64,000 nt of DNA, taken from Squalus acanthias. Taxonomy: Eukaryota. How positions within the stretch are numbered: the first letter of the stretch is position 1; every line of letters begins with the position of its first letter. Made by a program: the position numbers and the translations under genes. Under the pieces are notes generated by a model that saw only the letters and a program-made list of their open reading frames with translations, was not told the origin of the DNA and searched no databases. The DNA is taken from positions 62,001 through 126,000 of the forward strand of contig JASTWF010000334.1 of the NCBI GenBank assembly GCA_030390025.1. The letters are read 5' to 3'. This document shows, piece after piece, positions 15,205 through 63,574 of the stretch.

Positions 15205-17352
15205 TGATGCGGAGATGCCGGTGTTGGACTGGGGTGGACAAAAGTGAGAAGTCGCACAATACCAGGTTATAGTTCAACAGTTTTATTTGAAATCACAAGC
15301 TTTCGGAGCTGCTGCTCCTTCGTCAGGTGAAGTGAAGGAATACGAATCGGCAAAGTATATATAGACAGAGAACAATGCCTGTGCAGCGTACAATGTCAGA
15401 CGACTACAGTTAATCTTTCTGACTGCTTCTCTCTGCCGAGGTGAGAAAGGCAATCAGGTCAGTCAGGAAGACATTATATCAAAGACATAGCAAAATACAA
15501 CTAAGACAATGAGGTGGGGTCACAGGGGGTCTAATGTGTCAAATGCTGCAGTCTGTATGGAAAACCATAAACTTTAAACTTTTTACTTTTTTTACTGGAA
15601 ATCACATCTGTGAACAAGCCAACGACGACTCGAGTCTGGATGACTCTACGTCATGTAGCGTGACATGAACCCAAGATCCCGGTTGAGGCCGTCCTCATGG
15701 GTGCGGAACTTGGCTATCAGTTTCTGCTCGATGATTTTGCGTTGTCGTGTGTCTCGAAGGCCGCCTTGGAGAACGCTTACCCGCAGATCTGAGGCTGAAT
15801 GTCCTTGACTGCTGAAGTGTTCCCCGACTGGGAGGTAACAATCCTGCCTGGCGATTGTTGCGTGGTGTCCGTTCATACATTGTCGCAGTGTCTGCATGGT
15901 CTCGCCGATGTACCATGCTCCGGTGCATCCTTTCCTTCAACGTATGAGGTAGACAACATTGGCCGAGTCACATGAGTATGTACCATGTACCTGGTGGGTA
16001 GTGTCCTCATGTGTGATGATGGTATCTGTGTTGATGATCTGGCATGTCTTGCAGAGGTTGCCATGGCAGGGTTGTGTGGTGTCGTGGTCGCTGTTCTCCT
16101 GAAAGCTGGGTAATTTGCTGCGAACTATGGTACTTTTGAGGTTAGGCGGCTGTTTGAAGGCGAGTAATGGAGGCGTGGGGATGGCCTTAGCGAGGTGTTC
16201 GTCGTCATCGATGACATGTTGAAGGCTGCGAAGAACATGGTGTAGTTTCTCCGCTCCGGGGAAGTACTGGACGACGTAGGGTACCCTGTTGGTTGTGTCC
16301 CGTGTTCGCCTTCTGAGGAGGTCTATGCGATTTTTCGCTGTGGCCCGTCGGAACTGTCGATCGACAAGTCGAGCGTCATATCCCGTTCTTACGAGGGCGT
16401 CTTTCAGTGTCCGTAGGTGTCCATCGCGTTCCTCCTCGTCTGAGCAGATCCTGTGTATTCGCAGGGCTTGTCCATAGGGGATGGCTTCTTTAACGCGGTT
16501 AGGGTGGAAGCTGGAGAAGTGGAGCATCGTGAGGTTGTCCGTGGGCTTGCGGTAGAGTGAAGTGCTGAGGTGTCCGCCTTTGATGGAGATTCGTGTGTCC
16601 AGGAATGAAACCGATTCTGAGGAGTAGTCCATGGTGAGTTTGATGGTGGGATGGAACTTGTTGATGTTATTGTGTAGTCTTTTCAGTGATCCTTCGCCGT
16701 GGGTCCAAAGGAAGAAAATGTCGTCGATGTATCTGGTGTACAGCGTTGGTTGGAGGTCCTGTGCAGCGAAGAAGTCTTGCTCGAACTTGTGCATGAAGAT
16801 GTTGGCGTATTGGGGTGCGAATTTGGTCCCCATGGCTGTTCCGTGTGTTTGGGTAAAAAACTGGTTGTCGAAGGTGAAGACATTGTGGTCAAGGATGAAG
16901 CGGATGAGTTGTAGGATGGCGTCTGGAGATTGGCTGTTGTTGGTGTTGAGTACTGAGGCTGTCGCAGCGATGCCATCATCGTGGGGGATACTGGTGTAGA
17001 GTGCCGATACGTCCATCGTGGCGAGGAGTGTTCCTGGTTCAACTGGTCCATGGGTGCTGAGTTTCTGTAAGAAGTCTGTAGTGTCGCGACAGAAGCTAGG
17101 GGTTCCCTGTATGATGGGTTTCAGGATGCCCTCGACGTATCCAGAGAGGTTCTCACACAGGGTTCCGTTGGTGATACGATAGGACGTCCGGGTGTGTTGG
17201 CTTTGTGTATCTTTGGGAGGCAGTAGAAGTCTCCCACGCGGGGAGTACGTGGGATGAGAGCGCGTAGGATGCTTTGAAGGTCTGGATCGAAGGTCTTGAT
17301 CAGTCTATTGAGTTGGCGGGTGTGTTCTTTGGTCGGATCTGCGGGTAACTGT
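15205..17352 (-). mobile_element. Penelope-like retroelement (RT plus GIY-YIG endonuclease), 5'-truncated, one premature stop
   Basis: DVSALYTSIP, GTAMG and RYIDD RT motifs. The endonuclease SCDSANVVYLIR*...YIGET...LRQCMNGH is interrupted by TGA at 15937-15939. Confidence 0.93.
15293..15330 (-). ncRNA. Minimal type I hammerhead ribozyme motif at the Penelope terminus
   Basis: UCAC-CUGACGA-a-GGAGC agca GCUCC-GAAA-GCUU-GUGA: catalytic core, stem I, stem II and a palindromic stem III. Confidence 0.75.
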
Positions 17353-32913: not shown

Positions 32914-33104
32914 CTGTTTCTCTCCCCACAGATGCTGCCTGACCTCTGAGTATTTCCAGCAATTTCCATTTTTATAAGTAAATATTTAAACGAACTTATT
33001 ATCAATTACCAAATCCACTTCATAAATATCTATCTGTAATTTTCGGGCTGCACCCTCCACGCTGCTTGTGACATCACTGCTTCACTTTTTCACTCTGTGT
33101 TTGT

Positions 33105-33900
33105 TTGCGACGCTCTCTGTCGCTCTCTCTCTGCGCCTGCGCTGTATTTATGTTCCTCCATCTCCCACAATGCTCTCTGTCGCTCTCTCTGCGCCTGCGC
33201 TGTATTTATGTTCCTCCATCTCCCACAATGCTCTCTGTCGCTCTCACTCCGCGCCTGCGCTGTATTTATGTTCCTCCATCTCCCACAATGCTCTCTGTCG
33301 CTCTCACTCCGCGCCTGCGCTGTATTTATGTTCCTCCATCTCCCACAATGCCCTCTGTCGCTCTCTCTCCGCGCCTGCGCTGTATTTATGTTCCTCCATC
33401 TCCCACAATGCTCTCTGTCGCTCTCACTCCGCGCCTGCGTTGTATTTAGGGGCCTCCATCTCCCACAATGCTCTCTGTCGCTCTCCCTACGCGCCTGCGC
33501 AGTACTTATGTTCCTCCATCTCCCACAATGCTCTCTGTCGCACTCTCTCCGCGCCTGCGCTGTATTTAGGGGCCTCCATCTCCCACAATGCTCTCTGTCG
33601 CTCTCTCTCTGCGCCTGCGCTGTATTTATGTTCCTCCATCTCCCACAATGCTCTCTGTCGCTCCCTCTCCGCGCCTGCGCTGTATTTATGTTCCTCCATC
33701 TCCCACAATGCTCTCTGTCGCTCTCTCTCTGCGCCTGCGCTGTATTTATGTTCCTCCATCTCCCACAATGCTCTCTGTCGCTCTCTCTCTGCGCCTGCGC
33801 TGTATTTATGTTCCTCCATCTCCCACAATGCTCTCTGTCGCTCTCTCTCCGCGCTTGCGCTGTATTTGTGTTCCTCAATCTTCCTGCGATGCTCTCTGCC
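33105..33900. repeat. 60-bp minisatellite, about 13 copies
   Basis: Unit ctctctctccgcgcctgcgctgtatttatgttcctccatctcccacaatgctctctgtcg repeats in register on consecutive 60-nt lines. Confidence 0.97.
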
Positions 33901-33972
33901 TCTCTGATCTATCCTTTTTCTGGAATTAATTTCCAATAAAATACTGTTTCCATAACACTTGTATCAACTTAC

Positions 33973-45517: not shown

Positions 45518-47133
45518 TGTAGAATTCGCAATTATCGCGATTTCATTTTATTAAGGAGAAAACACAAGTTTCATTCAAAACAGCTTTTATTTCAGCGGAA
45601 TGCTGTCAGGTTTAAATTGGACACAAGCAGCCTGTAAAATGGCCGCCGCACCGCGTGACAGAACATTCGAGACTTTTCGGCAGGCAGACAAGATGGCGTT
45701 CCAATAAACATTTTTTTTTTGCAGGATCGATAACGATTCAGCACAGTGAAGACAATACACAGGACATTATGGGTTTACAGTATAAACATCGATACTGGGA
45801 TCGGTCTCCCAGGTACAAAGGAAAGCCATCAAGGGCCCATCCAAAGGACATTAATATGTAAACTCCCAACGGCTCTACGATGAGAGAGCCGTTAGCAGGT
45901 AGTTATACAGGACATTTGGAAGCCCCAAACCCCTCCAGGGGGAACACCGACCGATTTAACAATGGGAGAAGTATTAGCAGGTACTCAAACATTCAGGAGT
46001 AGCCCCGAAACCCATTAAAGACAGAGATCACCCATACAGGACTTTTTGGGCGCCAAACCTTAAACAAAAGAATGGACATTATAGTTGGGCGGGAAACGGA
46101 AGAACTGTGCACTATAATTGCAGGCCCAAACCGTCCATTCGCTCTCTTGCTCTTTTGCTCTTGACTCTTGCCGCTTGCTGCTGTTATCATCGTGGCTGCT
46201 CCTGTGTTTTATCCGGTCGATTCGTAACCTCGTGGCTGCTCCTGGGTAAAAGACTGTTGCAAAGACCTATGTTGGTAGCTGGCAGCGGAACCGAAGGCCC
46301 GGGATGAGATGAGATGAGATGAGAGGAGAAGAGAAGAAGACCTTATCCATCGCCACGGTCAGTAAATCCCGACCGCGCCTGTAGGTCGATCAGCCAAGTC
46401 TTCTTGACAACGAAGTTTTCTTCTTTAACAAGACATATTGCATCGACGATAACTGGACTGTGCAAACACATCGTATCAATGATATTGACAACGGTGCTCC
46501 ACCATACCCTGTATCCAACCAACAGAGGTCTTCACTACAGCGGACGGTCCAGCCGACTGACCGAGCAGCAGAAGCAGTAAACAAGTGGGACCAGGAGATC
46601 TCCTGACCAACACGTGGGTGCTGAGGTGGAAAACATCCGATCAGCTATTCGGGATTTCTCCGAGTTATTACGAGTGGTGAGCATGAGTCTCGGGATCCTA
46701 CGAAGCTAGTTTTAGGATAGTTATTGATAGGGGAGGGTTTAAAGTAAGGATATTTGTAATGTGTGCCCTATTTACGTTGTGCTGGTCGTTCCTCGTTTCC
46801 CTAAGAGTGATTATAACTGTTTGTAAGATTGTACTGTCATTCATCTGTGCATATGACATGTATTTCATAATTTTAAGTATCATGCAATAAAGATTTTCCA
46901 TTTCGTACCGTTCAAACCAAGTCTACATGAGTTTTATCTCCATTGCTGCTCTCGCATCTAAGTCCAGTGTCTAGAACCGTAAGGGAGAGTGATTCGAACC
47001 ACTCACAGGGGTGTCTAGTGTTCCCAGACTGGCTGGAGACCAGGCCTAGACCCGCACTGACATACAGGCTGCACAGAGCCGCGTGAACCTCACAGGTTAC
47101 GAGACACGCAGGGTCAGGAGAGTATCCCTTACA
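45518..47133 (+). repeat. 5' LTR (1616 bp)
   Basis: Repeated at a constant offset of 10993. GC box 46087, CGGAAG 46097, TATAAT 46113, AATAAA 46886, YY1-like AAAATGGCCGCC at about 45636. Confidence 0.97.
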
Positions 47134-47137
47134 GAAA

Positions 47138-48949
47138 ATGGCGACCGCGGCAGGACATTGGCAGCGAGAGGGTGGTGTGTTGGATTTTGGAATGACTGTA
47201 CGAAATGTGATGCAGGAAAAGATAGCGGATTACGTGTTTGGAAAGGTTAATCTAACGAAAAAGTGGATAAGCGAACTGTTAGCGGATAAGAGTCCACTAG
47301 AGGCAGCTGAAAGATGGACGGATAGTAAGGAGCATAAAAAGGCAGTTGAGAAAGCAGTCTGGCTTATGTGCTACAAAAGGCAGGTCCAGATTTCTAACCA
47401 GACCAATACAGCGCTAACCGCTCGAATCAAGCAGTTAGAGGAGGAAATGGAGGAGAAGGTTTCTGGAGGGGAGGTGCTCATTAAGAGTTTAAATGAGTTA
47501 CGCCAGGAAAGCCAGGAAGTCTCCAGCTACCTTAAAACAAGGGTAGAGTATCTCGAGTGCCAGATCACTGAAGCAAAATTAAACGAGAATAGGATGAAGG
47601 AAAGATGTAACCGTCAAGCTGCCCAGATAAGAACTCAAGAAGAGAGCTTAATGGGGGTTAGGTCGGCGTATAAGTTGGCCCTTGAGGATAAGTTTCAGGG
47701 AGCCGACCATAGCGCCTGCGAAAAAGAGATAGAGAGCCTCAAAAGGGCCGTGAATAATGCGAACGGCATGGTGTGCCTTATTAATCCGTCGGCACGCCAG
47801 CCGCTAGTAAATGAGAGATTTAGAAATTCCCCACCAAGTAAAGCAGAAGAAGTAGTAGCCACTGCGCCCTCCGCGCCACCCAGCTATTCAGAAACCTGGG
47901 TTAGGGAGGAAGCAACGGAAGAAACAAAAGAGCCCGTTGAAAAGGAAGTAGAAAAGGGATCGTTGTATCCAGTAACGGGGATTAAAAGGGGCCCAAGCAG
48001 AAACGGTGGGGAAGAACCGGGGGATCTCCTCGGACAGCTGGTGTTGCCTCACAGTTCACATCAGCTGAGGGCTATGATAAACCACGTAAGGAAGCTGACC
48101 GAGATAGACGACCCTTCCGTACATTTTAGGGAAGTTGAGCAAGCCGCAGCCATCAACGGCTGCGATGATGGGGAGACAGCAAAAATGCTGCTGTTCTCTT
48201 TAGATAGCTCGGTCCTTCAGTGTCTCTCAGGCGATAGCAAGAGGGGTAATAAAAGTTATGAGGAATTGAAAAATGAGGTCCTAGAAGTAGTGGGAGCGAA
48301 CGACGGAGGTCCGTTTGCTAGAGTGGGACAGACAGTGCAGATGGAGGGAGAACCCCCGAAGGTCTTTGCCGACAGGCTGTGGCCAGTATATGAGCGCAGC
48401 TGTCTAGGTGCGCCCGAGCGCGAAGATGTGGAAGGCGCCGCTTTAATTCATTGGCTTAGGTGCATAATAGCCAACAGTTTACCAGCCGTTAGAGAGCAGG
48501 CAAAAGCCTGGTTCGATCCCAATGACCTCAACCTTACGGAAGAGTCGGTCTTGAATCGACTCACGTTAGGTTACCGTAACATAAGGGGTATGGCAACACG
48601 TCCCTTTAAGGGAAGAGTACATGAGGTACGACCCGCAGCCCCGGCTCAAAGAGAGTGGCATCAGGAGGGTAATCGCGCCCCACAGGCAAGTAATGCCTGT
48701 TACGGGTGTGGGAAGACAGGGCACTGGCGCAAGCACTGCAGGAACCCTTGGAAGGATTCCAAGGATAAGAATCCCGCGGTCCGAGCCCAGGCGCCTGTCC
48801 CGGCTAAGGAAGCAAAGGTACCCACCTCTCCCGAAGACCTCGAAGCAGTGTTAGGAGTCATGCGCAAGATGGTTTTAAATGCGCGTGGACAGGTGGCGGT
48901 CGCAACCGGCCCCGTAGGTGCCGCAGGACCGTCTAATAGTGCCCCATGA
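47138..48949 (+). CDS. gag: Gag (603 aa): coiled coil, PSAPPSY late domain, capsid-like region, one CCHC knuckle
   Basis: CYGCGKTGHWRKHC at 48698-48739; PSAPPSY at 47867-47887; position directly after the LTR/PBS. Confidence 0.92.
   Translation: MATAAGHWQREGGVLDFGMTVRNVMQEKIADYVFGKVNLTKKWISELLADKSPLEAAERWTDSKEHKKAVEKAVWLMCYKRQVQISNQTNTALTARIKQLEEEMEEKVSGGEVLIKSLNELRQESQEVSSYLKTRVEYLECQITEAKLNENRMKERCNRQAAQIRTQEESLMGVRSAYKLALEDKFQGADHSACEKEIESLKRAVNNANGMVCLINPSARQPLVNERFRNSPPSKAEEVVATAPSAPPSYSETWVREEATEETKEPVEKEVEKGSLYPVTGIKRGPSRNGGEEPGDLLGQLVLPHSSHQLRAMINHVRKLTEIDDPSVHFREVEQAAAINGCDDGETAKMLLFSLDSSVLQCLSGDSKRGNKSYEELKNEVLEVVGANDGGPFARVGQTVQMEGEPPKVFADRLWPVYERSCLGAPEREDVEGAALIHWLRCIIANSLPAVREQAKAWFDPNDLNLTEESVLNRLTLGYRNIRGMATRPFKGRVHEVRPAAPAQREWHQEGNRAPQASNACYGCGKTGHWRKHCRNPWKDSKDKNPAVRAQAPVPAKEAKVPTSPEDLEAVLGVMRKMVLNARGQVAVATGPVGAAGPSNSAP
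47139..47156 (+). promoter_or_regulatory. Primer-binding site, tRNA-Arg(UCG)-like
   Basis: TGGCGACCGCGGCAGGAC is complementary to the 3' end of vertebrate tRNA-Arg(UCG) (...GTCCTGCCGCGGTCG-CCA, recalled from memory). Confidence 0.85.
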
Positions 48950-51900
48950 CTAGAACCAGCACAGCCCGTCTACCTGTGTCCGCTCAGCTATGATGCGTGG
49001 AGGCGACCTGTGGTGGAGATGGAGGTAGAGAAACAAAAGGGCAGTTATCTGTTGGACACGGGAGCTTCTTGCACCATAATCCATACAGATGACCCTTTTG
49101 ACTCGCCGCTATCTACCAAGGTCCCATTCACGCTAGCAGGGTTCACAGGGAAAGAACAGGCTGGCACGTTTTCCCTCCCGCTATCCATTCGTTTAGGAAC
49201 ACTTCGCTTTAAGTGGAAGTGTATACTGATGGCATGGCAAAAGGGGGGTGGAAGAGGTATTCTCGGGTCCGATCTGTTAGCGGGACACGGGATCCTCGTG
49301 GACCTCAGAAATCACTGTCTCTGGGGGGCTAAAGGGGAAAAAGGCGAAGTAATGGTGATTCAAGGGGAGGAAGAAACAGGGGTCCTGTGTACCGTACAGC
49401 CATCCGGAGGCTACGACCTCAGGCTTATGGTCGCAGATGTCCCAACGGACATGCAAACGTACGTGACAGATAATATGCACGCGTTTGCAACCCACAAGCA
49501 CGATTGTGGGAGGGTGGTCGGGTTTGAGGTCAGCGTAGATGGGGACCCCATGACCCGACCCCAAAAGCAGTATAACTTCCCCAAAGAAGCAGAACCCGAT
49601 ATGGAGGCAGCAATGTCTTCCTTGGTGCAGCAGGGCGTGTTGAGGCCGATAGCCACACACGTGAACTCCCCATTATGGCCGGTTAGGAAGCCGGATAATT
49701 CGTGGAGAGCCACGGTGGACTACAGAGTCCTTAACAGTAACATCCCCGCCTGCGCGCCCACAGTAGCAGCAGTTGCTGACCTAATAGGGAGCATCCCAGC
49801 GTCCGCGACCACGTTCACGGTGCTGGATATCTCGAACGGTTTTTGGTCCATCCCGCTGCGGCGAGAGGACCAGTACAAGTTTGCCTTTACGTTTAAAGGG
49901 CAACAGTACACGTGGAACTGCTTGCCACAAGGTTTCCACAATAGCCCCAGTATTTTTCACCAGTGTATGGCAGGGAGTTTAAAGGAGTTTAGTCAGCCCA
50001 ATCAGATAGTACAGTATGTGGATGATTTGCTCCTATTTACGGACTCAAGGGAGGAGCACGGACCACTGCTGGACGAGTTATTGGAGCTGTTAGCGAGAAA
50101 GGGTTTTAAAGTAAACCCAAAGAAAGCACGTATCGGTCAGCAGGAAGTAAAATTCCTGGGACTGACCCTACGCGCTGGGGAAAGAGCCATAGACAAAGCA
50201 AGGAGGGAGTCGGTGCAAGAATTACCGATTCCCAACAACGTAAGGGGTGTGAGGTCCTTCTTGGGACTGACCGGTTACTGCAGGGATTTTATCGAGGATT
50301 ATGCGGCCACAGCGGCGCCGCTCCTCCGACTCCTCCATAAGGGAGTAGAGTGGCTTTGGGACGAGGGCTGCCAAGCAGCCTTCGAGAAGTTAAAAAGGGA
50401 TCTGCAGACCGCGCCAGCCTTAGGGGCCATAGATGGGGGGAAGGAGTTTTTCCTGGAGGTAGCTGCCAGCGGAGACAGTTTAAGTGCCGTGCTGCTCCAA
50501 GAGCGTCACGGCAAGCTGAGGCCGGTTGTCTATTCATCCAGGGTATTAACGGATGTGGAGAGGAGTTTTTCCAATTGCGAAAGGCACCTTTTAGCCACGC
50601 ATTGGGCTGTGAAAAGATCAGCGATCTTCACAGGGCTCTCTCCCATCACTCTCCTCACACATCACACACCAACTAAGATGCTTCTGGATGGGAGGATTAA
50701 AGACGGGACCGTAAGCAGCGCACGCATTGCGCGTTGGACCCTTCTTCTCTCCCAGTTGGACATCAGAGTAAAAGGTCTTTGCGAGCCCAGGCTTGCGGCC
50801 AATTTGGTATACCCCGGTACAGCCCACCGGTGTTCGGTGGAGGGGGTGTGGGACGTCAACATAGGTTTACGGGCCGGGATACATCCCAATGGGCGCGAGA
50901 TTTATGTTGATGGGTCTAGCACAGTATCTGCTGGCGAGCGACTCACAGGGTGTGGAGTTTATGACCCTGCGGCAGACCTTGCCCTGGCGATCAAGCTCCC
51001 TAGCACCATGAGCGCGCAGCAGGCTGAGCTGTCTGCCGTGGTGTACGTGGTAACCCACCCAGACATTTTCCCAACCCCATACACGATTTGCTCGGACAGT
51101 ATGTTCACCTGCAATTCGTGTACGGAATACCTGGCCATCTGGTCCCGCCGTGGATACACCTCCGCGGACGGGCGACCTTTAACGGTAAAGCCCTTGCTGG
51201 AAAAGATCTTAGCAGCAGCAGTAGGGGAGGAAGGGGAGATTTTCATCCATAAGGTGAAAGCTCACTCCTCCACAGAGCCCCGTGGGGAGGGCAACCGGCA
51301 GGCGGATGCGCTAGCCAGGGAGGGTGCCCGCGACGGTACTTTCTGGAACCCCTATAGAACCGGACCCATAGCAGCGGTCCGAGGTGGGGACGGGAATACC
51401 GGGAACACCAGGGTAGCATTGCCCCTAGACCTTAAGACCGTCCAAGCCCAGGATCCCGCCCTAAAAGCAGTCCTAAAAACGATTGCTGAGGGGAGGCAGG
51501 TAGAAGGTCCGTACAGTACGGCAACCCTCTCAGTTAAGGAAGGCATGCTGTTCCGCGAGGAGCAGTGGGTTGTGCCGCAGCAGCACAGGAGGGAATTCCT
51601 CCAGTTGGCTCACGAGGGACCAGGGGCAGGGCACCCCGGGCCCGAGGTTACCTGGCAACGGGTAGAGCAAGCGGGATGGTGGCCAGGGCTCAGGGAACAA
51701 GTCCGCGAGTTCTGTGCAAACTGTCTTGTGTGCGCTGCAAACAACCCAGACCCCCAGAAAAGGAAGGTGCCCATGGGACACGTAAGAAGGGTAGAGGGAC
51801 CATGGCAGTCGATACAGATCGACTATATAGGACCCCTGCCCACCACCCAGGGAGGTTATAAGTACTGCCTCGTCCTGGTGGATGTGTTTTCCAAGTGGGT

Positions 51901-53452
51901 GGAAGCCTTCCCTTGTCGAACAGCTACGGCACTGGGTACAGCAAAAATCTTGGTCCGGGAAGTGTTCTCGCGGTGGGGACTCCCCCGTTTCGTGGAGTCA
52001 GACCAAGGGAGTCATTTCACCGGCCAGGTGATGCAGAACACCCTCATGCTTTTGGGCATTGAAGGGAAGTGGCACGTAGCACACAATCCCCAGTCATCCG
52101 GGATTGTTGAACGTATGAACCGGACCCTGAAGGAGAAATTGAGGAAAGAGACTAGGAACTCGCCCCAAAAATGGGCGGAAGTTCTGCCTTTAGTCCTCAT
52201 GGGGGTCCGGGCCAGTCAGTCAAAAAGTACGGGGTACTCCCCGCACGAGGTAATGACCGGCAGGCTCATGCGAACCCCCACCCATGTGCTAGCCCCGGTG
52301 CTCACTGAGGGTCAGCTTCAAGAGATCAGCAGGGACAAGTTCGCCCAAACTCTCTTGGAGCGCCTGAAGCAAGTTTATGAGCAGGCGGCTGGGAACATGG
52401 GAAGGCAGCACCAGGGCAATCGCTTGTTGCTGGAACCCCGCAAAACGCGGGAGTGGGAAGTAGGAGACCAGGTCATGGTCAGAAACTACGCCAGAGTAGG
52501 GAGTCTGGAACCACTGTATATGGGACCCTACAACATTGTAGACAAGGCAAGTCCCATGGTTTACGCCGTAAAAGTACCTCGGCGCACTAAGTGGTTCCAC
52601 ATAAACCAATGTAAACTGTACCAGCCGGGTGCGCAAGGGAAAACTACAGGGGTAAATCCCGCCAACGGGAAAACACAGCCCCAGGTAGGACCACAAGGCA
52701 CACAGGCAGGCGTAGCAGCTTGCATCAGGGGAAGGGACATCCCGGACGATCATGCAGCGTTTTTCTGGAGTTGGGGGTTAGATGACGAGGACCCCAGGGT
52801 ACCCTGGTCAGATGAGGATAGTGCAGATGAGCATAGTGATGATGACGGGTGGTTTCACAGGAACGGTCTGGAAGGATTGGGGCCGCTAGGTAGAGATCCA
52901 TACGGGGTGGACACACAAGCTGCAGGTCCCGACAGCAGGAGGAAGGAGCTAGAGGAGGCCGGGCCAGCCGCTATGTGGTTCCCAGAGGTGTGGCCGCCCG
53001 CTGTAAACGTCCAGTCCTCAGGGGAGGCAGAGTTCGCGAGTGAAGGGCCGCCTGCTGGGCCGAGCAGGGCGGGGCCCCGAACTGCCAGCCCCGAGGTTAG
53101 GGAGGCGGAGTCAGCGGAGGCGGGGCTGGCGCCTGTGATGGAACCCCAGGTCATCCCGTTGAAGGTCTCGGGACCCGGTCCGTCCGTCACGGAGCCCCCG
53201 CCCATAGCAGTTCCCCGTAGGTCAAGCAGAGCACCCCAGCCCAGGAAGACGTGGTCAGGTCCACAGGATGCCCCAGGGCGTAAGTTTCAGATTAAGATAA
53301 CCCGGGTAGAGACAGGCCACATCGAAGCAGTAACAGGCTGCGGCAGATCAGAGGAAAGGGTCAGCGCAGCAACAGGCTGCGGCAGATCAGAAGGAAGGGT
53401 CAGTGCCCTCCCACCGTCGGGAAGAGCTCGCAGCAGCCTTCTCAGGATTTAA
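48950..53452 (+). CDS. pol: Pol (PR-RT-tether-RNase H-IN plus long C-terminal tail), in frame with gag
   Basis: LLDTGA protease; LPQGFHNSP and YVDD RT; degenerate RH then IYVDGS/AELSA/SDS/ADALA RH; HHCC, DDE and GPY integrase. Confidence 0.96.
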   Translation, partial: LEPAQPVYLCPLSYDAWRRPVVEMEVEKQKGSYLLDTGASCTIIHTDDPFDSPLSTKVPFTLAGFTGKEQAGTFSLPLSIRLGTLRFKWKCILMAWQKGGGRGILGSDLLAGHGILVDLRNHCLWGAKGEKGEVMVIQGEEETGVLCTVQPSGGYDLRLMVADVPTDMQTYVTDNMHAFATHKHDCGRVVGFEVSVDGDPMTRPQKQYNFPKEAEPDMEAAMSSLVQQGVLRPIATHVNSPLWPVRKPDNSWRATVDYRVLNSNIPACAPTVAAVADLIGSIPASATTFTVLDISNGFWSIPLRREDQYKFAFTFKGQQYTWNCLPQGFHNSPSIFHQCMAGSLKEFSQPNQIVQYVDDLLLFTDSREEHGPLLDELLELLARKGFKVNPKKARIGQQEVKFLGLTLRAGERAIDKARRESVQELPIPNNVRGVRSFLGLTGYCRDFIEDYAATAAPLLRLLHKGVEWLWDEGCQAAFEKLKRDLQTAPALGAIDGGKEFFLEVAASGDSLSAVLLQERHGKLRPVVYSSRVLTDVERSFSNCERHLLATHWAVKRSAIFTGLSPITLLTHHTPTKMLLDGRIKDGTVSSARIARWTLLLSQLDIRVKGLCEPRLAANLVYPGTAHRCSVEGVWDVNIGLRAGIHPNGREIYVDGSSTVSAGERLTGCGVYDPAADLALAIKLPSTMSAQQAELSAVVYVVTHPDIFPTPYTICSDSMFTCNSCTEYLAIWSRRGYTSADGRPLTVKPLLEKILAAAVGEEGEIFIHKVKAHSSTEPRGEGNRQADALAREGARDGTFWNPYRTGPIAAVRGGDGNTGNTRVALPLDLKTVQAQDPALKAVLKTIAEGRQVEGPYSTATLSVKEGMLFREEQWVVPQQHRREFLQLAHEGPGAGHPGPEVTWQRVEQAGWWPGLREQVREFCANCLVCAANNPDPQKRKVPMGHVRRVEGPWQSIQIDYIGPLPTTQGGYKYCLVLVDVFSKWVEAFPCRTATALGTAKILVREVFSRWGLPRFVESDQGSHFTGQVMQNTLMLLGIEGKWHVAHNPQSSGIVERMNRTLKEKLRKETRNSPQKWAEVLPLVLMGVRASQSKSTGYSPHEVMTGRLMRTPTHVLAPVLTEGQLQEISRDKFAQTLLERLKQVYEQAAGNMGRQHQGNRLLLEPRKTREWEVGDQVMVRNYARVGSLEPLYMGPYNIVDKASPMVYAVKVPRRTKWFHINQCKLYQPGAQGKTTGVNPANGKTQPQVGPQGTQAGVAACIRGRDIPDDHAAFFWSWGLDDEDPRVPWSDEDSADEHSDDDGWFHRNGLEGLGPLGRDPYGVDTQAAGPDSRRKELEEAGPAAMWFPEVWPPAVNVQSSGEAEFASEGPPAGPSRAGPRTASPEVREAESAEAGLAPVMEPQVIPLKVSGPGPSVTEPPPIAVPRRSSRAPQPRKTWSGPQDAPGRKFQIKITRVETGHIEAVTGCGRSEERVSAATGCGRSEGRVSALPPSGRARSSLLRI

Positions 53453-53735: not shown

Positions 53736-56087
53736 ATGGAACGACTCATAGTATTGCTCGTGGCAATCGGATGTGGATTGGCCTATCGGGGCCTCACCAA
53801 GGATGTCGTGGTGTTTGGATGTTCCGGGGACACGGCCCCCATCGCGGTGGATGGGACCGGGAGACGGAAGGCAGAAGGGACCAGCACCTATTTCCACAAG
53901 GGAAGGTGGCCAGGATGGCTGGGAACGAACTCAACGGAGTATTCCAGCACATCGGGGTTCGCCTACAAAGAGACTTCTTTAATGTGCCCCAAAGTACGGA
54001 TCATCGCACCCAGGATCAGCGTCACCGTCGGCAAACGGATTTGTTTGACTTGCAGTGGGAATGTCCCATTGAGCCGATGGTGGTGGCTGCGAAAGCTGAG
54101 CAAAACTATGAGGAACTCTTCGGTTGAGTGGGAGCGACTGGGTAATAATACCCATCGGACAATTACGGGGACTGATGGACAAGTGAAAGTCTGTTGGGAC
54201 AAATGGTGGGAACCAGATGAGGGGATTTATGTTTGTATGTGGGGGTCAAAGTACGTTTGCCCCAAAGGCATCTCCATATTCTTTATTAACCAGTGGCAGG
54301 ATAACGGACAGGGGATGAGGTGGGATGCGAGCACCAGGGGGTGCGGAGCCCCATTCTCCCCGATCCCAGTAAATGCCACTGAGCTCATTACGCGCCCACG
54401 CAAAGCCCCGCCCACGATTCCGGTAGTTCTAACTGAGGAAGAAGGGTGCCCTAAAACTAGTAAGGGACCCGGGAACGGTTTGGTACTGGTCCCCACAGAC
54501 CAGATACTATTTCAGGGGGTGCATTACGCGGTGGCCTCGGTGATTTTAAATCTCACTGAGGTACGGTTACCAGAGTGGTGCCCCAAAAAGACGGAACAGT
54601 TGTACCAGGTCCTGTTGACCAAGATGTTCAGGCAGTTTTACGAGTTCGATTTCGCGGAAATTGATAAGACAAGTTTATACACCGCACCGCAGGAAGTTTT
54701 GGACCAAGTTGGGAGGCAAAGAAGGGGTTTGGTGAACGATGCGTTCACTGCTTTTAACACAGGGACATCTGTGGTCAACGCTCTAGACAGTGTGGAGCTG
54801 CAGACCCAGATTAATGGTTTAAAAACACAGTTAAAGGATATTCTCACAGATGAGAATAAAGTGGTAGGGTCGGGTCTGCACGAGGACCAAGCCATGACAC
54901 TACACTTAAAAGAGATTATAGCAGAGCTGGAGAAACATGCGCGTACGGTAAATGCCCTGATTAGGGAAGATCGGAATGCATCCGATCAAGCTGCGCAGAA
55001 CGAGGTGTGCGTGCTTTACGGGGCGTGGTTACTGGGCGAGGGCCGCAGTAATTTGGAGGATTTAAAACAAGGTTTGGTCCCGTCCTGGATAAGTAACAAA
55101 CACCTGCGGGCGCTCCACCCTTTTCAGAATGCATTAAGTCCGTGCCAGCTCAGGCTAGCTTCAGAAGCTTACCCAGTCCCCGTGGACTGCGGACGTTCAA
55201 ACCATACTATTATGGGAATAGTATTACGCATGCCGGTTTTGGGCAACACAGCAAAGCCCGCCCCGGTGTATCGGGTAGAGAACATTGGTGTCATTCAGGG
55301 GGGAGCCCACATTCGTTATGCAGCGGTTCCACCTTACGTCATCCGCTGGGAGCAAACGATGACAGGTACAGATCTCTCTGGTTGTCGTGGCAGGGGAGCA
55401 CACATAATACTGTGCCCCCAGCACTTGAATGCCTTTTTAACACCACAGTGCGGGTTCAGAACGGCTGGCGCCAAGTCCATGAATTGCACCATGGAGGCAA
55501 TGGCACAAGATCATGTGCCTCCGCAGGTAGCATACATCGGGGGTGGAACATATTGTGTTACCACTGCAGCGCAACACTACCAGCATGGAAACCGTAGCCG
55601 GTGTCCGGTGAGTGACAGCAGTTTCTGTTTTAAACCCAGGGCTGAAGTTCAAGTAGCACAACAGCGAATTATCCCAATCCCTGAACCATCCACTGTTCAT
55701 CTCACAGTAAAAGAGAATTTTACCGACTTGCAGCGATTTGTCGCACATTTTGGGTACCTCATTCCCCCTCTCCCTGAGCATTTAACCAAACTTCTGAAGG
55801 CCGTCGCGGTGTCACAAAAGCATTTCTATACTTTAGAACAGAAAACCGTCGAGATAGGTACAGACATTTTGGACATAGTGGTTCCACCGTGGTGGAATCT
55901 GTTCACGAATATTGAAGTGCCCTCATGGGTCAGAATAGCCTCCCACATTTTAGTCGTATGTCAAGTGTTTATTGTAGTATACCTTTTGTTTATACATTGT
56001 AAAAGAGACAAGCGCCTCACCAAGCATGAGAACACGGGAGAGTGGCGAGAACGTTACGTGCGCGTGCACGATGAGAGCGCAGTGTAA
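53736..56087 (+). CDS. env: Env-like glycoprotein (783 aa): signal peptide, Ig-like domain, RQRR furin site, fusion peptide/heptad, Cys-rich region, TM anchor
   Basis: Hydrophobic N-terminus; acceptor ...atcacAG at 53721-53722; RQRR|GLVNDAF at 54714-54725; several N-X-S/T sequons; TM IASHILVVCQVFIVVYLLFI. Confidence 0.92.
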   Translation: MERLIVLLVAIGCGLAYRGLTKDVVVFGCSGDTAPIAVDGTGRRKAEGTSTYFHKGRWPGWLGTNSTEYSSTSGFAYKETSLMCPKVRIIAPRISVTVGKRICLTCSGNVPLSRWWWLRKLSKTMRNSSVEWERLGNNTHRTITGTDGQVKVCWDKWWEPDEGIYVCMWGSKYVCPKGISIFFINQWQDNGQGMRWDASTRGCGAPFSPIPVNATELITRPRKAPPTIPVVLTEEEGCPKTSKGPGNGLVLVPTDQILFQGVHYAVASVILNLTEVRLPEWCPKKTEQLYQVLLTKMFRQFYEFDFAEIDKTSLYTAPQEVLDQVGRQRRGLVNDAFTAFNTGTSVVNALDSVELQTQINGLKTQLKDILTDENKVVGSGLHEDQAMTLHLKEIIAELEKHARTVNALIREDRNASDQAAQNEVCVLYGAWLLGEGRSNLEDLKQGLVPSWISNKHLRALHPFQNALSPCQLRLASEAYPVPVDCGRSNHTIMGIVLRMPVLGNTAKPAPVYRVENIGVIQGGAHIRYAAVPPYVIRWEQTMTGTDLSGCRGRGAHIILCPQHLNAFLTPQCGFRTAGAKSMNCTMEAMAQDHVPPQVAYIGGGTYCVTTAAQHYQHGNRSRCPVSDSSFCFKPRAEVQVAQQRIIPIPEPSTVHLTVKENFTDLQRFVAHFGYLIPPLPEHLTKLLKAVAVSQKHFYTLEQKTVEIGTDILDIVVPPWWNLFTNIEVPSWVRIASHILVVCQVFIVVYLLFIHCKRDKRLTKHENTGEWRERYVRVHDESAV

Positions 56088-56498: not shown

Positions 56499-56510
56499 AA
56501 CAGGAGGGAC
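56499..56510 (+). promoter_or_regulatory. Polypurine tract
   Basis: aacaggagggac immediately before the 3' LTR. Confidence 0.7.
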
Positions 56511-58126
56511 TGTAGAATTCGCAATTATCGCGATTTCATTTTATTAAGGAGAAAACACAAGTTTCATTCAAAACAGCTTTTATTTCAGCGGAATGCTGTC
56601 AGGTTTAAATTGGACACAAGCAGCCTGTAAAATGGCCGCCGCACCGCGTGACAGAACATTCGAGACTTTTCGGCAGGCAGACAAGATGGCGTTCCAATAA
56701 ACATTTTTTTTTTGCAGGATCGATAACGATTCAGCACAGTGAAGACAATACACAGGACATTATGGGTTTACAGTATAAACATCGATACTGGGATCGGTCT
56801 CCCAGGTACAAAGGAAAGCCATCAAGGGCCCATCCAAAGGACATTAATATGTAAACTCCCAACGGCTCTACGATGAGAGAGCCGTTAGCAGGTAGTTATA
56901 CAGGACATTTGGAAGCCCCAAACCCCTCCAGGGGGAACACCGACCGATTTAACAATGGGAGAAGTATTAGCAGGTACTCAAACATTCAGGAGTAGCCCCG
57001 AAACCCATTAAAGACAGAGATCACCCATACAGGACTTTTTGGGCGCCAAACCTTAAACAAAAGAATGGACATTATAGTTGGGCGGGAAACGGAAGAACTG
57101 TGCACTATAATTGCAGGCCCAAACCGTCCATTCGCTCTCTTGCTCTTTTGCTCTTGACTCTTGCCGCTTGCTGCTGTTATCATCGTGGCTGCTCCTGTGT
57201 TTTATCCGGTCGATTCGTAACCTCGTGGCTGCTCCTGGGTAAAAGACTGTTGCAAAGACCTATGTTGGTAGCTGGCAGCGGAACCGAAGGCCCGGGATGA
57301 GATGAGATGAGATGAGAGGAGAAGAGAAGAAGACCTTATCCATCGCCACGGTCAGTAAATCCCGACCGCGCCTGTAGGTCGATCAGCCAAGTCTTCTTGA
57401 CAACGAAGTTTTCTTCTTTAACAAGACATATTGCATCGACGATAACTGGACTGTGCAAACACATCGTATCAATGATATTGACAACGGTGCTCCACCATAC
57501 CCTGTATCCAACCAACAGAGGTCTTCACTACAGCGGACGGTCCAGCCGACTGACCGAGCAGCAGAAGCAGTAAACAAGTGGGACCAGGAGATCTCCTGAC
57601 CAACACGTGGGTGCTGAGGTGGAAAACATCCGATCAGCTATTCGGGATTTCTCCGAGTTATTACGAGTGGTGAGCATGAGTCTCGGGATCCTACGAAGCT
57701 AGTTTTAGGATAGTTATTGATAGGGGAGGGTTTAAAGTAAGGATATTTGTAATGTGTGCCCTATTTACGTTGTGCTGGTCGTTCCTCGTTTCCCTAAGAG
57801 TGATTATAACTGTTTGTAAGATTGTACTGTCATTCATCTGTGCATATGACATGTATTTCATAATTTTAAGTATCATGCAATAAAGATTTTCCATTTCGTA
57901 CCGTTCAAACCAAGTCTACATGAGTTTTATCTCCATTGCTGCTCTCGCATCTAAGTCCAGTGTCTAGAACCGTAAGGGAGAGTGATTCGAACCACTCACA
58001 GGGGTGTCTAGTGTTCCCAGACTGGCTGGAGACCAGGCCTAGACCCGCACTGACATACAGGCTGCACAGAGCCGCGTGAACCTCACAGGTTACGAGACAC
58101 GCAGGGTCAGGAGAGTATCCCTTACA
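56511..58126 (+). repeat. 3' LTR (1616 bp)
   Basis: All five small ORF translations and the T10 run match the 5' LTR. Confidence 0.97.
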
Positions 58127-58950
58127 GATGTTTAGAAGGAGACAAAGGGCCCTCCCTGTGTGTTGTAAGTTGTTGTCATTGTGTCACAGTGATAGGGAGT
58201 GTGAGGGCTGTATGGTCGAATAGTTAAGTGAATGTGACCATAGAGAGAGAGGGAATGGGTAAGGGTGCAGGGATGTCAGTGTCAAGTGGGATGTGGAGGA
58301 AGAGGTTGGCAAAGCTGAGTGCTGGTGAAGAGAGGCGCTGGGGATCAGATTGAGGGTGATGGGAAAGTCATACTCACTTTTCCTGCGCAGAGAAGTTCAT
58401 GAAACCTCTTCCTGCACTGCAGCCAGGTTCTGCGGCTCATTGATATGGAGTTGACCTCCTGGGCCACTTGCAGCCACACAGCTTTAGTCTGTTGTGGTGG
58501 CTTTTTTCTCCCTGAGGAAGGGAAGAGCACCTCGTTATTAGATCTTGCTCCCTGCACCAGAGCTTGGAGGGAGGGCTCATCAAAGCGAGGTGCACACTTT
58601 TGCTTGCTGGTGGACATGGTCGGTAAATGAAGTCCTTCATACAATGTCCAAAGCGTTTCCAGTCTCCAGAAGAATCAAGGCTGCTTGCAGGCCTTAAATC
58701 CAACAGCATTGATGAGGTCATCGGAAGCGACTTTCAGGATGGAAAGACTCATTGGGCTAGTGGTTCCCACACGCAGGAAATCAATTTCCCAATTAGGGGA
58801 AAATCCCACTTTTCCAACACATCACTTAGGAGTCGGGGTCCTGACACGATTTCCACCTGACACGCCCCAGCCCGCCCACACTGACAAAATCCAGCCCTAT
58901 GATTCTATATTGTCATCGTTTGACAGCTCTGTGAAGCTGTCAAACACTGA

Positions 58951-60855: not shown

Positions 60856-63574
60856 GGCCGCGATTTTCACAGCCCCGAGGAGGGGGGTTTGGAGGCGGGA
60901 CTGTTGGGAAAATCGCAAAAAGTGAGCCCGGGTTCGGAACCCGCCTCCAACCTGCCTCTGCGCAATTATGCCGGAAGCGGGTTTGACGGGTGCAATTCGG
61001 TCCCGCCTCCATCAGTCAAGAGAGGTAGTTAAGACCCTTAAATAGTCGTTAAGGACCTCTATAATCCTATTTCGACAGGCCTTTGTTATTTTGCCACATT
61101 TTGCACGTGTTGTACGACCCTCCTAAACCACACCAGTTGATCCTGGCGGGTTGACAAGTGGATGGCCTCCTCACAGCTGCAGCTCCACCATTAAAACGGA
61201 GCTTTCATCAGGGAGCAGTTGCAGGTGGCAGAACTTTTGTTCCACAGGTCTTTCAGCACTTTTAGCAGGCCTACCGAAGTCGGAGATGCTGCAGCTTCTA
61301 TCTCTCAACTGTGTGACCTCCTTGGAAAACCCTCTCCCCGCTTGGAGTGAGCGCTTCCCCAACGAAGGTATCTGCCAGCAGCATGGGAACCATTTATTTC
61401 CTTTCATCATGGACCTCAGATTCGGATGAGGAGCAGCCACGGCAGCAGGAGCGCCAACCTCCTGCTCACCCACCTGATGCTGCACAGGGCAGAAGGTGCC
61501 AGCACATGGCAGCACGTCGCCGCAGGAGATACCCCCTCTCAGGGTTTACAGACAGAGGATGAGCTACCTCAACATGAGTGAGCAGCAGTACCAAAGGAGG
61601 CTGAGGGTTTCACGAGAGGTTGTCGGAGACACCTGCGCACTGCTGCAACCAAACCTGGAGCCCAGAGGAACGGCTGGACACCCCTTACCAGTGGCTGTCA
61701 AAGTCACCACCGCACTCAACCTTTTTGCCTCAGGCTCCTTCCAGGGATCATCAGCAGACATCAGCGGCATCTCCCAGTCGGCCGCCCACAGTTGCATCAC
61801 GCAGGTTATCGATGCCCTTTTCGCAAAGGCGTACATTTACATGCACTTCTCAAGGGATCAAGCAAGTAGAACCGCGTGTTCAGTTGGCTTTGCAAATATG
61901 GCAGGCTTGCCAATGGTGCAGGGTGTCATAGACTGCACACATGTGGCCCTTAGGGTACCACATCACAACCCAGCTATCTTTCTCAACCACAAGGGCTTCC
62001 ACTCCCTCAACGTACAGCTGGTGTGTAACCACAAGAAGGAGATTTTGCATTTTTGCGCCAAGTTCTGTGGTAGTTGCCATGACTCGTTCATCCTGCGGAG
62101 CTCCAGTGTTCCTATGCTCTTCAATCCGCCAAACCAACTTAATGGATGGCTTCTTGGTGACTGAAGAAGTGGCTAATGACGGCGATCAAGAGGCCAGCTA
62201 ACGAGGCTGAGGTGCGCTACAACGACAGCCACATATCGACCAGGTCCATCATCGAGCAGACCATTGGTTTGCTGAAGATGCGATTCTGATGCCTTGACAG
62301 AGCAGGTGGAGCCCTGCAGTATTCAGCAGCCCGGGTCTCCAGAATGGTCGTGGTCTGCTGTGCACTGCACAACATGGCACAGCATCGTGGCTTACAGCTT
62401 CCTGATGAGCAAATGGTTTAGTTCATAGCCTCCTCAGATGAGGATGAGGATGAGGAGGAGGAGGATGAGGATGACCGAGTGGCGGCGTATCTACCAGGAG
62501 CAGTGGCAGCGCGCGAGCACATGGCTGCCCGTGATGCAAGGGAAGCACTCATCCTGGCCTGATTTGCATAGGTTGCCCATTGTGGCACATGTGACTGGCT
62601 CCTTCTTAACACATGATAGACAATGGACATGACTTTCTGGCCTCCTTTCACTCTGACCACTAACCTGACCATGCAAGTGTCGCGGAGCCCGCAATGTGGA
62701 GCTGCCTAAGCCGAAATAACAGATGTCATCACGCCAACAGTTTGCCATCACCTCATTTTAATACATTCACACAGGGATGGCATTTCATCAATAAACAGAA
62801 ACAATCACCAAAGAGCCTACCCCTGTGACTAATAGTGCTTTATTTTTCTCTTACGCGTGCTCCTACATGGTGCTCCCCCTGTGGCTTCAGCAGATGTGGA
62901 GGCACCTTGCTCACTTTCATGCTGCTCCTGCTTCGACACCTTTGGCGGGCGTCCTCTAGGTTTCCGAGCCTGTGAGGACTCACCAAATGTCTGCTCATCC
63001 TGCGGCAGTGCAGGGGCTGAGATGCCCATCTCAGTTGGGTGCGGACTCTGGTGGGGCTTTGACCGAGGGCTACGCAGTGGCATGGAAGTGTGAGTGCTTG
63101 GAGAGGAGCCCCCACTTCCTTGTTCTCTGCCAAGGGTTATATCCCTTGCCAGCTGGACCCACACAGCCTTGGTTTCTTTGGGAGGCCTCTTCCTCCGAGA
63201 AGAAGGGAAAAGCACCTCCCTGCTAGCTCTCGCCCCCTCAACCAGGATACCCAGCGCCTCATCCAAGAACCTCGGGAGGCCCTTGCCTTGGAGCTGGTCA
63301 TTCTACAATGAGATAAAAGTTTGGAGGTGGTGCAGCATCGACCAAAAACCAGTGGAATGAGCCAAGGCAGCAAGCAGCCCTTAAATGAAGCTGGATAAGT
63401 GACATCAGCAGAGGCGAGTTTCAGTCCCAAAAGACTAATTGGCCCAGGGGAACCCACACCTCTGAAATCAACTGGCCAATTAGGGGAAAATCACAAATTT
63501 TTCCCACCTCTCAGTGGAGGCGGGTTTGGAACCCGCCCAAACCGAAACCCGCCTCCAATGTGAAAATCGCCCCC
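60856..63574. mobile_element. Harbinger C: transposase pseudogene (+, about 61400-62560) and deleted Myb/SANT gene (-, 62829-63300)
   Basis: TIRs ggccgcgattttcaca / tgtgaaaatcgccccc with TTT flanks. HARBI1-like motifs GVIDCTHV, NHKGFHSLNVQLVC, HDSFIL and WLLGD. Confidence 0.88.

Follow-up and report, generated by a model that had tools for sequence, protein, structure and literature searches.

The window analysed here is a 64,000-nucleotide stretch of contig JASTWF010000334.1 from Squalus acanthias (GCA_030390025.1), which carries an endogenous retrovirus (ERV) on its forward strand. The provirus is intact and young, with a 5' long terminal repeat (LTR) of 1616 bp (TG...CA, 45518..47133, AATAAA at 46886) to which the 3' LTR (56511..58126) shows 0 mismatches, a 4-bp target site duplication (GATG) upstream of the first LTR and directly after the second, and a short polypurine tract (56500..56510) adjoining the 3' LTR. 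The genes gag, pol and env lie between the LTRs, and the envelope protein (Env) is predicted to be a class Ib fusogen of the F type, the type of the paramyxo- and pneumovirus fusion (F) proteins.

The env open reading frame (ORF) runs on the forward strand from an ATG at 53736 to a stop at 56087 and encodes 783 aa, beginning with a probable signal peptide placed by hydropathy at aa 1-16 (53736..53783). The beginning of the F-like module, near aa 238 (54447), agrees with the position 54440 given by an earlier, sequence-only reading of this DNA, and a further 220 aa of Env lie upstream of it. The first part of the module (aa 238-326, 54447..54713) is an F2-like subunit segment with a CP-x-GP motif, a long beta strand and an HRC-like helix, modelled by AlphaFold2 (AF2) with a predicted local distance difference test (pLDDT) score of 82-92 over aa 235-304 and aligned to F2 of human parainfluenza virus 3 (hPIV3) and Newcastle disease virus (NDV) F. 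A furin-type site, RQRR, is read from the sequence at aa 327-330 (54714..54725), and a basic cleavage site is kept in most Env homologues spanning this position. Behind it follow a putative fusion peptide (aa 331-351) and the helices of heptad repeat A (HRA) and domain III (aa 352-445; together 54726..55070), the Cys-rich beta domains I and II (aa 470-650, 55143..55685, mostly pLDDT 77-97), a heptad repeat B (HRB) linker and helix (aa 661-714), a transmembrane (TM) anchor at about aa 733-754 and a 29-aa cytoplasmic tail up to the stop (55716..56087).

From aa 331 to the start of the TM anchor the ectodomain measures 402 aa, and its Cys motifs are LSGC (C550), ILCP (C560), CGF (C572), CTM (C584), YCVTT (C607), CP (C623) and FCF (C631). 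The hydrophobic fraction at heptad positions a and d, in the best register chosen and without a chance baseline, is 0.65-0.67 after the cleavage site and 0.8 before the TM anchor. A pattern search of the 783-aa Env found neither CX6CC nor a QNRxxLD-type motif, the pattern of the immunosuppressive domain. In these respects the sequence-only reading had described the protein accurately, having named the cleavage site, a heptad repeat behind it, an ectodomain of about 400 aa, all seven Cys motifs and the absence of CX6CC and immunosuppressive motifs. Its fusion-peptide-like segment fared less well: because this segment is mildly hydrophobic and poorly modelled, the fusion peptide is assigned by its position and by its conservation in homologues.

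The AF2 model of the Env monomer, built from an alignment of 31 sequences (pLDDT 71.3, predicted TM-score 0.54), has the nested domains I, II and III of class Ib fusogens with both cleavage products in the core, and the protein follows the class Ib order of furin site, fusion peptide (by position), HRA, long Cys-rich ectodomain, HRB and TM anchor. The top match in a Foldseek search of the PDB was hPIV3 F (E 1.4e-11), and all rows listed were paramyxo- or pneumovirus F proteins except foamy virus Env 8rm1 at rank 48 (E 5.6e-6). A VIA comparison with 48,161 PDB representatives returned 17 chains at Z≥5, 16 of which were paramyxo- or pneumovirus F or foamy Env, with unrelated rows at Z≤5.1. hPIV3 F aligned at Z 13.0 (root mean square deviation (rmsd) 6.0, 323 residues aligned), model residues 11-417 spanning F2 and F1, NDV F at Z 12.4 (rmsd 18.2, 347 aligned), and foamy Env at Z 8.6 (rmsd 8.4, 276 aligned) and Z 8.4 (rmsd 5.2, 271 aligned); no orthoretroviral Env was among the PDB fold matches listed. 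The best fold matches in BFVD were lispi/xinmovirus and fish-filovirus (Wenling thamnaconus filovirus) glycoproteins, baculovirus F and paramyxovirus F, with further matches to the Envs of walleye epidermal hyperplasia virus 1 (WEHV1, E 3.4e-9), walleye dermal sarcoma virus (WDSV, 1.2e-5) and feline foamy virus (8e-4). ESM features of Env likewise pointed to the Baculo_F and Fusion_gly clusters (0.92 each). The layout is therefore F-like rather than that of a gamma- or deltaretroviral surface/transmembrane (SU/TM) Env, as the sequence-only reading had held. That reading had also set F against foamy Env; F does rank first, with foamy Env next, but the contrast holds only against the gamma/delta type. 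Foamy Env is F-like as well (PMC11468914), so that F and foamy Env are not true alternatives.

A profile of the Env family gave foamy Env as its top three matches in the PDB (E 0.0017-0.0086) and no F protein at E≤10, the Cys-rich domains I and II being the region that matches the foamy Env TM subunit (E 0.0017). The same profile was used in HHalign to score envelope ORFs of viral genomes from IMG/VR, among them an SnRV-type (snakehead retrovirus) genome, L035, whose label rests on its reverse transcriptase (RT) match to the SnRV row of a published alignment. Seven of the Env labels were Pfam-checked and the others assigned by length and motif (the L036 and L057 Envs were left out), nine of 20 paramyxovirus-like loci passed the F-motif filter, and the comparison was run without pneumovirus, lispivirus, Loki and fish mononegavirus glycoproteins. 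The L035 Env scored 54 across 288 collinear columns, whereas the highest score among 100 shuffles of the same protein was 25.5, and it reached a probability of 93.9 in a server profile run; the epsilon-type L078 Env had the highest profile score (58). Foamy Envs scored 25-48 (15 of 16 above 25.5) and paramyxovirus F proteins 15-32 (two of nine above), whereas the gamma/delta Envs, at 12-25, never exceeded the shuffle maximum (0 of 18). Compared profile against profile, foamy Env reached 50, F 33 and gamma/delta Env 25. Judged by these alignments, the C-terminal half of the shark Env is homologous to and collinear with the SnRV-type L035 Env. The L078 (5962-9648) and L035 (6131-9532) Envs belong to no Pfam family, yet match the F-type profile, and the Env models of WDSV and WEHV1 match by fold; all of these are apparently F-type Envs that have so far gone unrecognised.

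Homologues of the shark Env occur in sharks, in a skate and in frogs, with identities of 20-74%, the nearest named ones in Rhinoraja (74%) and Pristiophorus and the distant ones in other sharks and frogs (14 of 44 matches looked up), which argues for an old Env family. Identity to paramyxo- and pneumovirus F is 7-17%. Direct capture of env from a mononegavirus of fish, be it paramyxo-, lispi- or fish-filovirus-like, and separately from the loki-, foamy and SnRV-type Envs, has in its favour that the best structural matches are Mononegavirales glycoproteins (hPIV3 F in the PDB, and the lispi/xinmovirus and thamnaconus filovirus proteins in BFVD) and that fish mononegaviruses are missing from the set compared by sequence. 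We nevertheless regard such a capture as quite unlikely, given that paramyxovirus F lies near background by profile, with SnRV, epsilon and foamy Envs above it, and given the spread of homologues over sharks, skate and frogs. The shared ancestry with Mononegavirales F proposed by the sequence-only reading is supported by the fold, but a special link to paramyxo- and pneumoviruses is not, because the fold also matches lispi/xinmovirus, fish-filovirus, baculovirus F, walleye and foamy proteins, and because retroviral F-type Envs outscore paramyxovirus F by profile.

Several observations weigh against an F-type Env inherited from older retroviral stock. The Pfam family Fusion_gly (PF00523), the profile search suggested by the sequence-only reading, matched neither Env (E≤1) nor 29 homologues (E≤0.05), and a single-sequence PDB search with Env gave no F match. 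Pairwise BLAST of Env to the L035 Env was not significant, and hmmsearch against it was borderline (7.2 bits, equalled by one of 200 shuffles). TM-scores reach only some 0.4, rmsd values are large, and the model is a monomer whose pLDDT falls below 50 in the fusion peptide and in parts of HRA; the putative fusion peptide is also unusually polar, with a mean Kyte-Doolittle value of 0.42 over 22 aa. Structure scores, moreover, put paramyxovirus F above foamy Env, although this rank is probably not a measure of kinship because the foamy chains are cleaved or insertion-bearing. The missing Pfam match and the 7-17% identity to F could mean that an unrelated class I protein resembles F by convergence, or by a modelling artefact, through its signal peptide, furin site, coiled coils and TM anchor, and AF2 was trained on data that included F structures. 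The fold match, however, extends beyond the helices to the beta-rich domains (model residues 11-417) and lies far above the Z of unrelated rows, and the model-free sequence tests (ESM features, foamy profile matches and the L035 HHalign score) agree with it, so that convergence or artefact is largely refuted and in our view highly improbable.

The lineage of the element is less sharply defined than its Env type. Its pol gene (48950..53452) encodes protease, RT (YVDD), tether, RNase H, integrase (IN) and a long low-complexity tail, with Pfam matches to RVP, RVT_1, RT_RNaseH_2, RNase_H, Integrase_H2C2 and rve. RT identity is highest to the SnRV-type L035 (45%), followed by foamy viruses (33-39%), gamma- and epsilonretroviruses (34-37%) and proteins with the loki signature (31-34%); among named proteins, those closest to Pol are 'NYNRIN-like' proteins of frogs (44-45%). 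In a maximum-likelihood (ML) tree of 34 rows and 217 columns, in which lokiretroviruses are represented by four unlabelled loki-motif proteins and published Loki, ERV-L and CmiERV rows are absent, Loki and gypsy split from all others at 96/99 with the window's group on the retrovirus side, where it is part of a basal polytomy close to SnRV and the foamy viruses, its own monophyly being weak (49/57); the foamy clade (100/100) excludes the window RT. The IN tree does not separate the lineages as to the element's placement. Env shows no match to the foamy family PF03408 and its F2-like segment measures only 89 aa, and the gamma-type (TLV_coat) features of CX6CC, immunosuppressive domain and short TM ectodomain are absent. 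The best reading of these sequence comparisons is that the element belongs to an SnRV-related or still deeper retroviral lineage. Two results speak against a link to SnRV in particular: tether and IN are closer to loki-type proteins (37-40% and 36-37%) than to SnRV (28% and 31%), and the approximately unbiased (AU) test rejects no grouping (with loki p 0.148, with SnRV 0.126, with foamy 0.256).

The element was first read as a lokiretrovirus, which would make it the first in cartilaginous fish and its F-like Env the known loki Env. It has the lokiretroviral traits of a dual RNase H and an F-like Env, the same gag-pol-env layout with tether and RNase H, tether and IN sequences nearer to loki-type than to SnRV, an AU p of 0.148 for a clade with loki, and, by eye, the same Env motif order as the published Loki Envs looked at (eight of 23). 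This reading was downgraded, as the RT motif and the RT tree point elsewhere. The RT carries LPQGFHNSP in place of the loki signature PFGY[AS]NSP..FNIFL, and in the part of the published loki supplement examined PQGFHNSP has 0 matches while PFGY[AS]NSP has at least 69; the RT also fits the SnRV row of the published alignment much better and falls on the retrovirus side of the 96/99 branch. The eight Loki Envs show no N-terminal extension, and PMC7947760 reports loki in none of six chondrichthyan genomes. With an RT closer to SnRV (45%) than to loki (31-34%), the element is probably not a lokiretrovirus, an assignment we consider unlikely; an SnRV-related or deeper position is preferred.

The element has multiplied to about two thousand copies, some 1,800 with env, judged by 2,454 exact LTR-PBS (primer binding site) junctions and 1,783 exact env cleavage-site 28-mers in the 3.7-Gb genome. 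Over aa 235-735, Env is 100% identical in all 86 protein matches scored (the best candidates). Every fifth of the first 100 env matches listed was sampled (n = 20, biased to copies with the exact 28-mer), and 16 of these 20 copies are open and full length. Their F module has a pN/pS of 0.052 (27 non-synonymous vs 153 synonymous variants) and the N-terminal part 0.157; env is under strong purifying selection. In the ERV literature, purifying selection on env among proliferating copies is read as Env-dependent spread, and as env is selected across copies, entry into cells by means of Env, not purely intracellular retrotransposition, is suggested here. One subfamily (L116-L118 on C1) has retained gag and env but lost pol, missing the equivalent of 48982-52666 in the window, and is likely non-autonomous; 14 of 56 junction-env pairs in the first 144 Mb of C1 have a short spacing of 4.2-4.3 kb, and the three pol-deleted copies fetched all share breakpoints.

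Taken together, we think it likely that the element is an intact, recently multiplied ERV with an SnRV-related RT and a predicted class Ib, F-type Env that works much as paramyxovirus F does. Env would be made from a spliced RNA. If F and foamy Env (PMC11468914) are a guide, it would trimerise and be cut by furin at RQRR, leaving a metastable trimer in which, on triggering, HRA would extend and insert the fusion peptide before HRB zips back to form a six-helix bundle. The F2-like segment of the N-terminal product would stay in the fusion scaffold, and the same product may bear an Ig-like domain for attachment, standing in for a separate H, HN or G protein. This candidate module (aa 84-175, 53985..54260), followed by a Pro/Thr-rich linker (aa 205-237) in the N-terminal part of Env, is a lead that draws on a C...W...DxGxYxC motif kept in three homologues, on sub-threshold matches to Pfam Ig_3 (E 0.43) and the PDB, and on ESM leads of 0.85-0.87; an AF2 model of the N-terminal 218 aa (four sequences) gave pLDDT 31 and no usable fold. 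The N-terminal modules vary in distant homologues, with a weak V-set in P0120, a different Cys-rich module in P0099 and none in P0122, which suggests that attachment heads are swapped among Env homologues.

That a retroviral Env can be F-like is not new in itself, having already been published for loki- and foamy viruses. Lokiretrovirus Env resembles PF00523 (E 2.2e-7; Wang and Han, PMC7947760), and lokiretroviruses share an F-like Env, an RXKR site and a dual RNase H with the element (PMC7947760, PMC9040795), while their Env starts directly with the F2-like segment, and their RT signature and tree position differ. Foamy Env was shown to share the F core and named class Ib by Fernandez et al. 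(PMC11468914), whose available text has no mention of loki. Foamy Envs (8rm0, 8rm1, 8ozh) are the only solved structures matched by our sequence profile, but the shark Env lacks the foamy-type internal receptor-binding domain insertion and leader-peptide TM segment, its extra module being N-terminal to the F scaffold. Paramyxo- and pneumovirus F (PF00523; hPIV3 1ztm, NDV 3maw, respiratory syncytial virus 3rki) is the best fold match and shares the compact order of F2, furin site, fusion peptide, HRA, domains I and II, HRB and TM anchor without insertion; unlike F, the shark Env has the 220-aa N-terminal extension and a more polar fusion peptide, and the element has no separate attachment gene. 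Baculovirus F, errantivirus F-type Env and walleye epsilonretrovirus Env belong to the same fold family, but their carriers (DNA viruses, Ty3/gypsy elements and the epsilon RT clade, respectively) differ from the element, and F-type Env is described as widespread in gypsy elements in bioRxiv 10.1101/2023.10.26.564294. SnRV, which has the closest labelled RT, shares an in-frame gag/pol split by a stop but differs in its gag stop (TAG vs TGA-CTAG here) and in the length of its Env ORF (1134 vs 783 aa); the element's tether and IN are more loki-like, and it forms no supported clade with SnRV. PMC4422223 describes SnRV-related ERVs in elephant shark (CmiERV lineage I), and PMC6001957 a clade Huo (SnRV and class III ERVs) that spans all vertebrates. 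A literature search, with subscription papers outside its coverage, found no report of F-like Envs from SnRV or epsilon lineages, so the F-like Env of an SnRV-related shark lineage is apparently new in print.

The element adds a lineage with an F-type Env to the canonical retroviral side of the RT tree. It is intact, present in many copies and strongly conserved, its compact F scaffold possibly combined with an attachment domain in the same protein, and the profile of its Env family ties SnRV, epsilon-type and foamy Envs together by sequence. This suggests that F-type envelopes have a longer history and a wider distribution in fish retroviruses than previously described, and opens the question of Env origin to phylogenetic testing. 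Of the four scenarios for retroviral Env origin laid out by Wang and Han (PMC9040795), independent gains were preferred, as no relationship was apparent between loki Env and the canonical retroviral Env. The F-like nature of foamy Env was established later. The canonical-side RT lineage and the profile link between SnRV, epsilon and foamy Envs instead favour a single old F-type Env, most likely inherited by the element from an older retroviral or LTR-element stock and not freshly captured from a paramyxovirus. In its widest form, F-type Env would be ancestral to retroviruses (loki, foamy, SnRV-related, walleye epsilon and shark) and the gamma-type SU/TM would have arisen later, with the shark element, whose RT is retrovirus-like but whose tether and IN are loki-like, a deep-branching lineage that has very recently spread by means of an Ig-like-headed Env; this scenario is tentative, and we give it somewhat less than an even chance.

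The remaining parts of the provirus show some features of their own. The PBS (47139..47156, 5 nt past the LTR) is complementary to the 3' end of tRNA-Arg(TCG) and overlaps the gag ATG (47138), so that gag begins inside it. The PBS-complementary pattern has 431 matches in the genome, and ARAGORN calls tRNA-Arg(tcg) in both loci scanned; most of the matches listed lie in large tandem arrays on C26 whose unit, with a period of about 1623 bp, contains tRNA-Arg(TCG) (about 39.0-41.9 Mb). A self-priming PBS, also considered, was dropped once the true LTR end had been located. The gag gene (47138..48949, 603 aa) encodes a coiled-coil N-terminal half and a CCHC knuckle (zf-CCHC weak, E 0.31). It ends in TGA followed by CTAG (48947-48953), in frame with pol, where L035 and the gamma- and epsilonretroviruses use TAG; we take this to be a leaky stop that is likely read through into pol. 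The same context occurs at leaky stops of alphaviruses and of some cellular genes. At the other end of pol, IN is followed in the same ORF by an acidic, Pro-rich tail of about 270 aa with a short internal repeat (52640-53452).

The insertion site of the provirus lies beside or within the remains of a Harbinger-like DNA transposon, found at 58345-58674 on the reverse strand and at 61478-62164 on the forward strand (Myb/SANT domain, E 7e-9; DDE_Tnp_4, E 8e-13). The upstream flank (1-45500), its ORFs judged by eye, consists of repeat DNA typical of vertebrates, with LINE-like RT fragments, a fragment of a Penelope-like RT at 15937-17304 on the reverse strand and, again by eye, minisatellites near 1071-1768 and 33026-33939.

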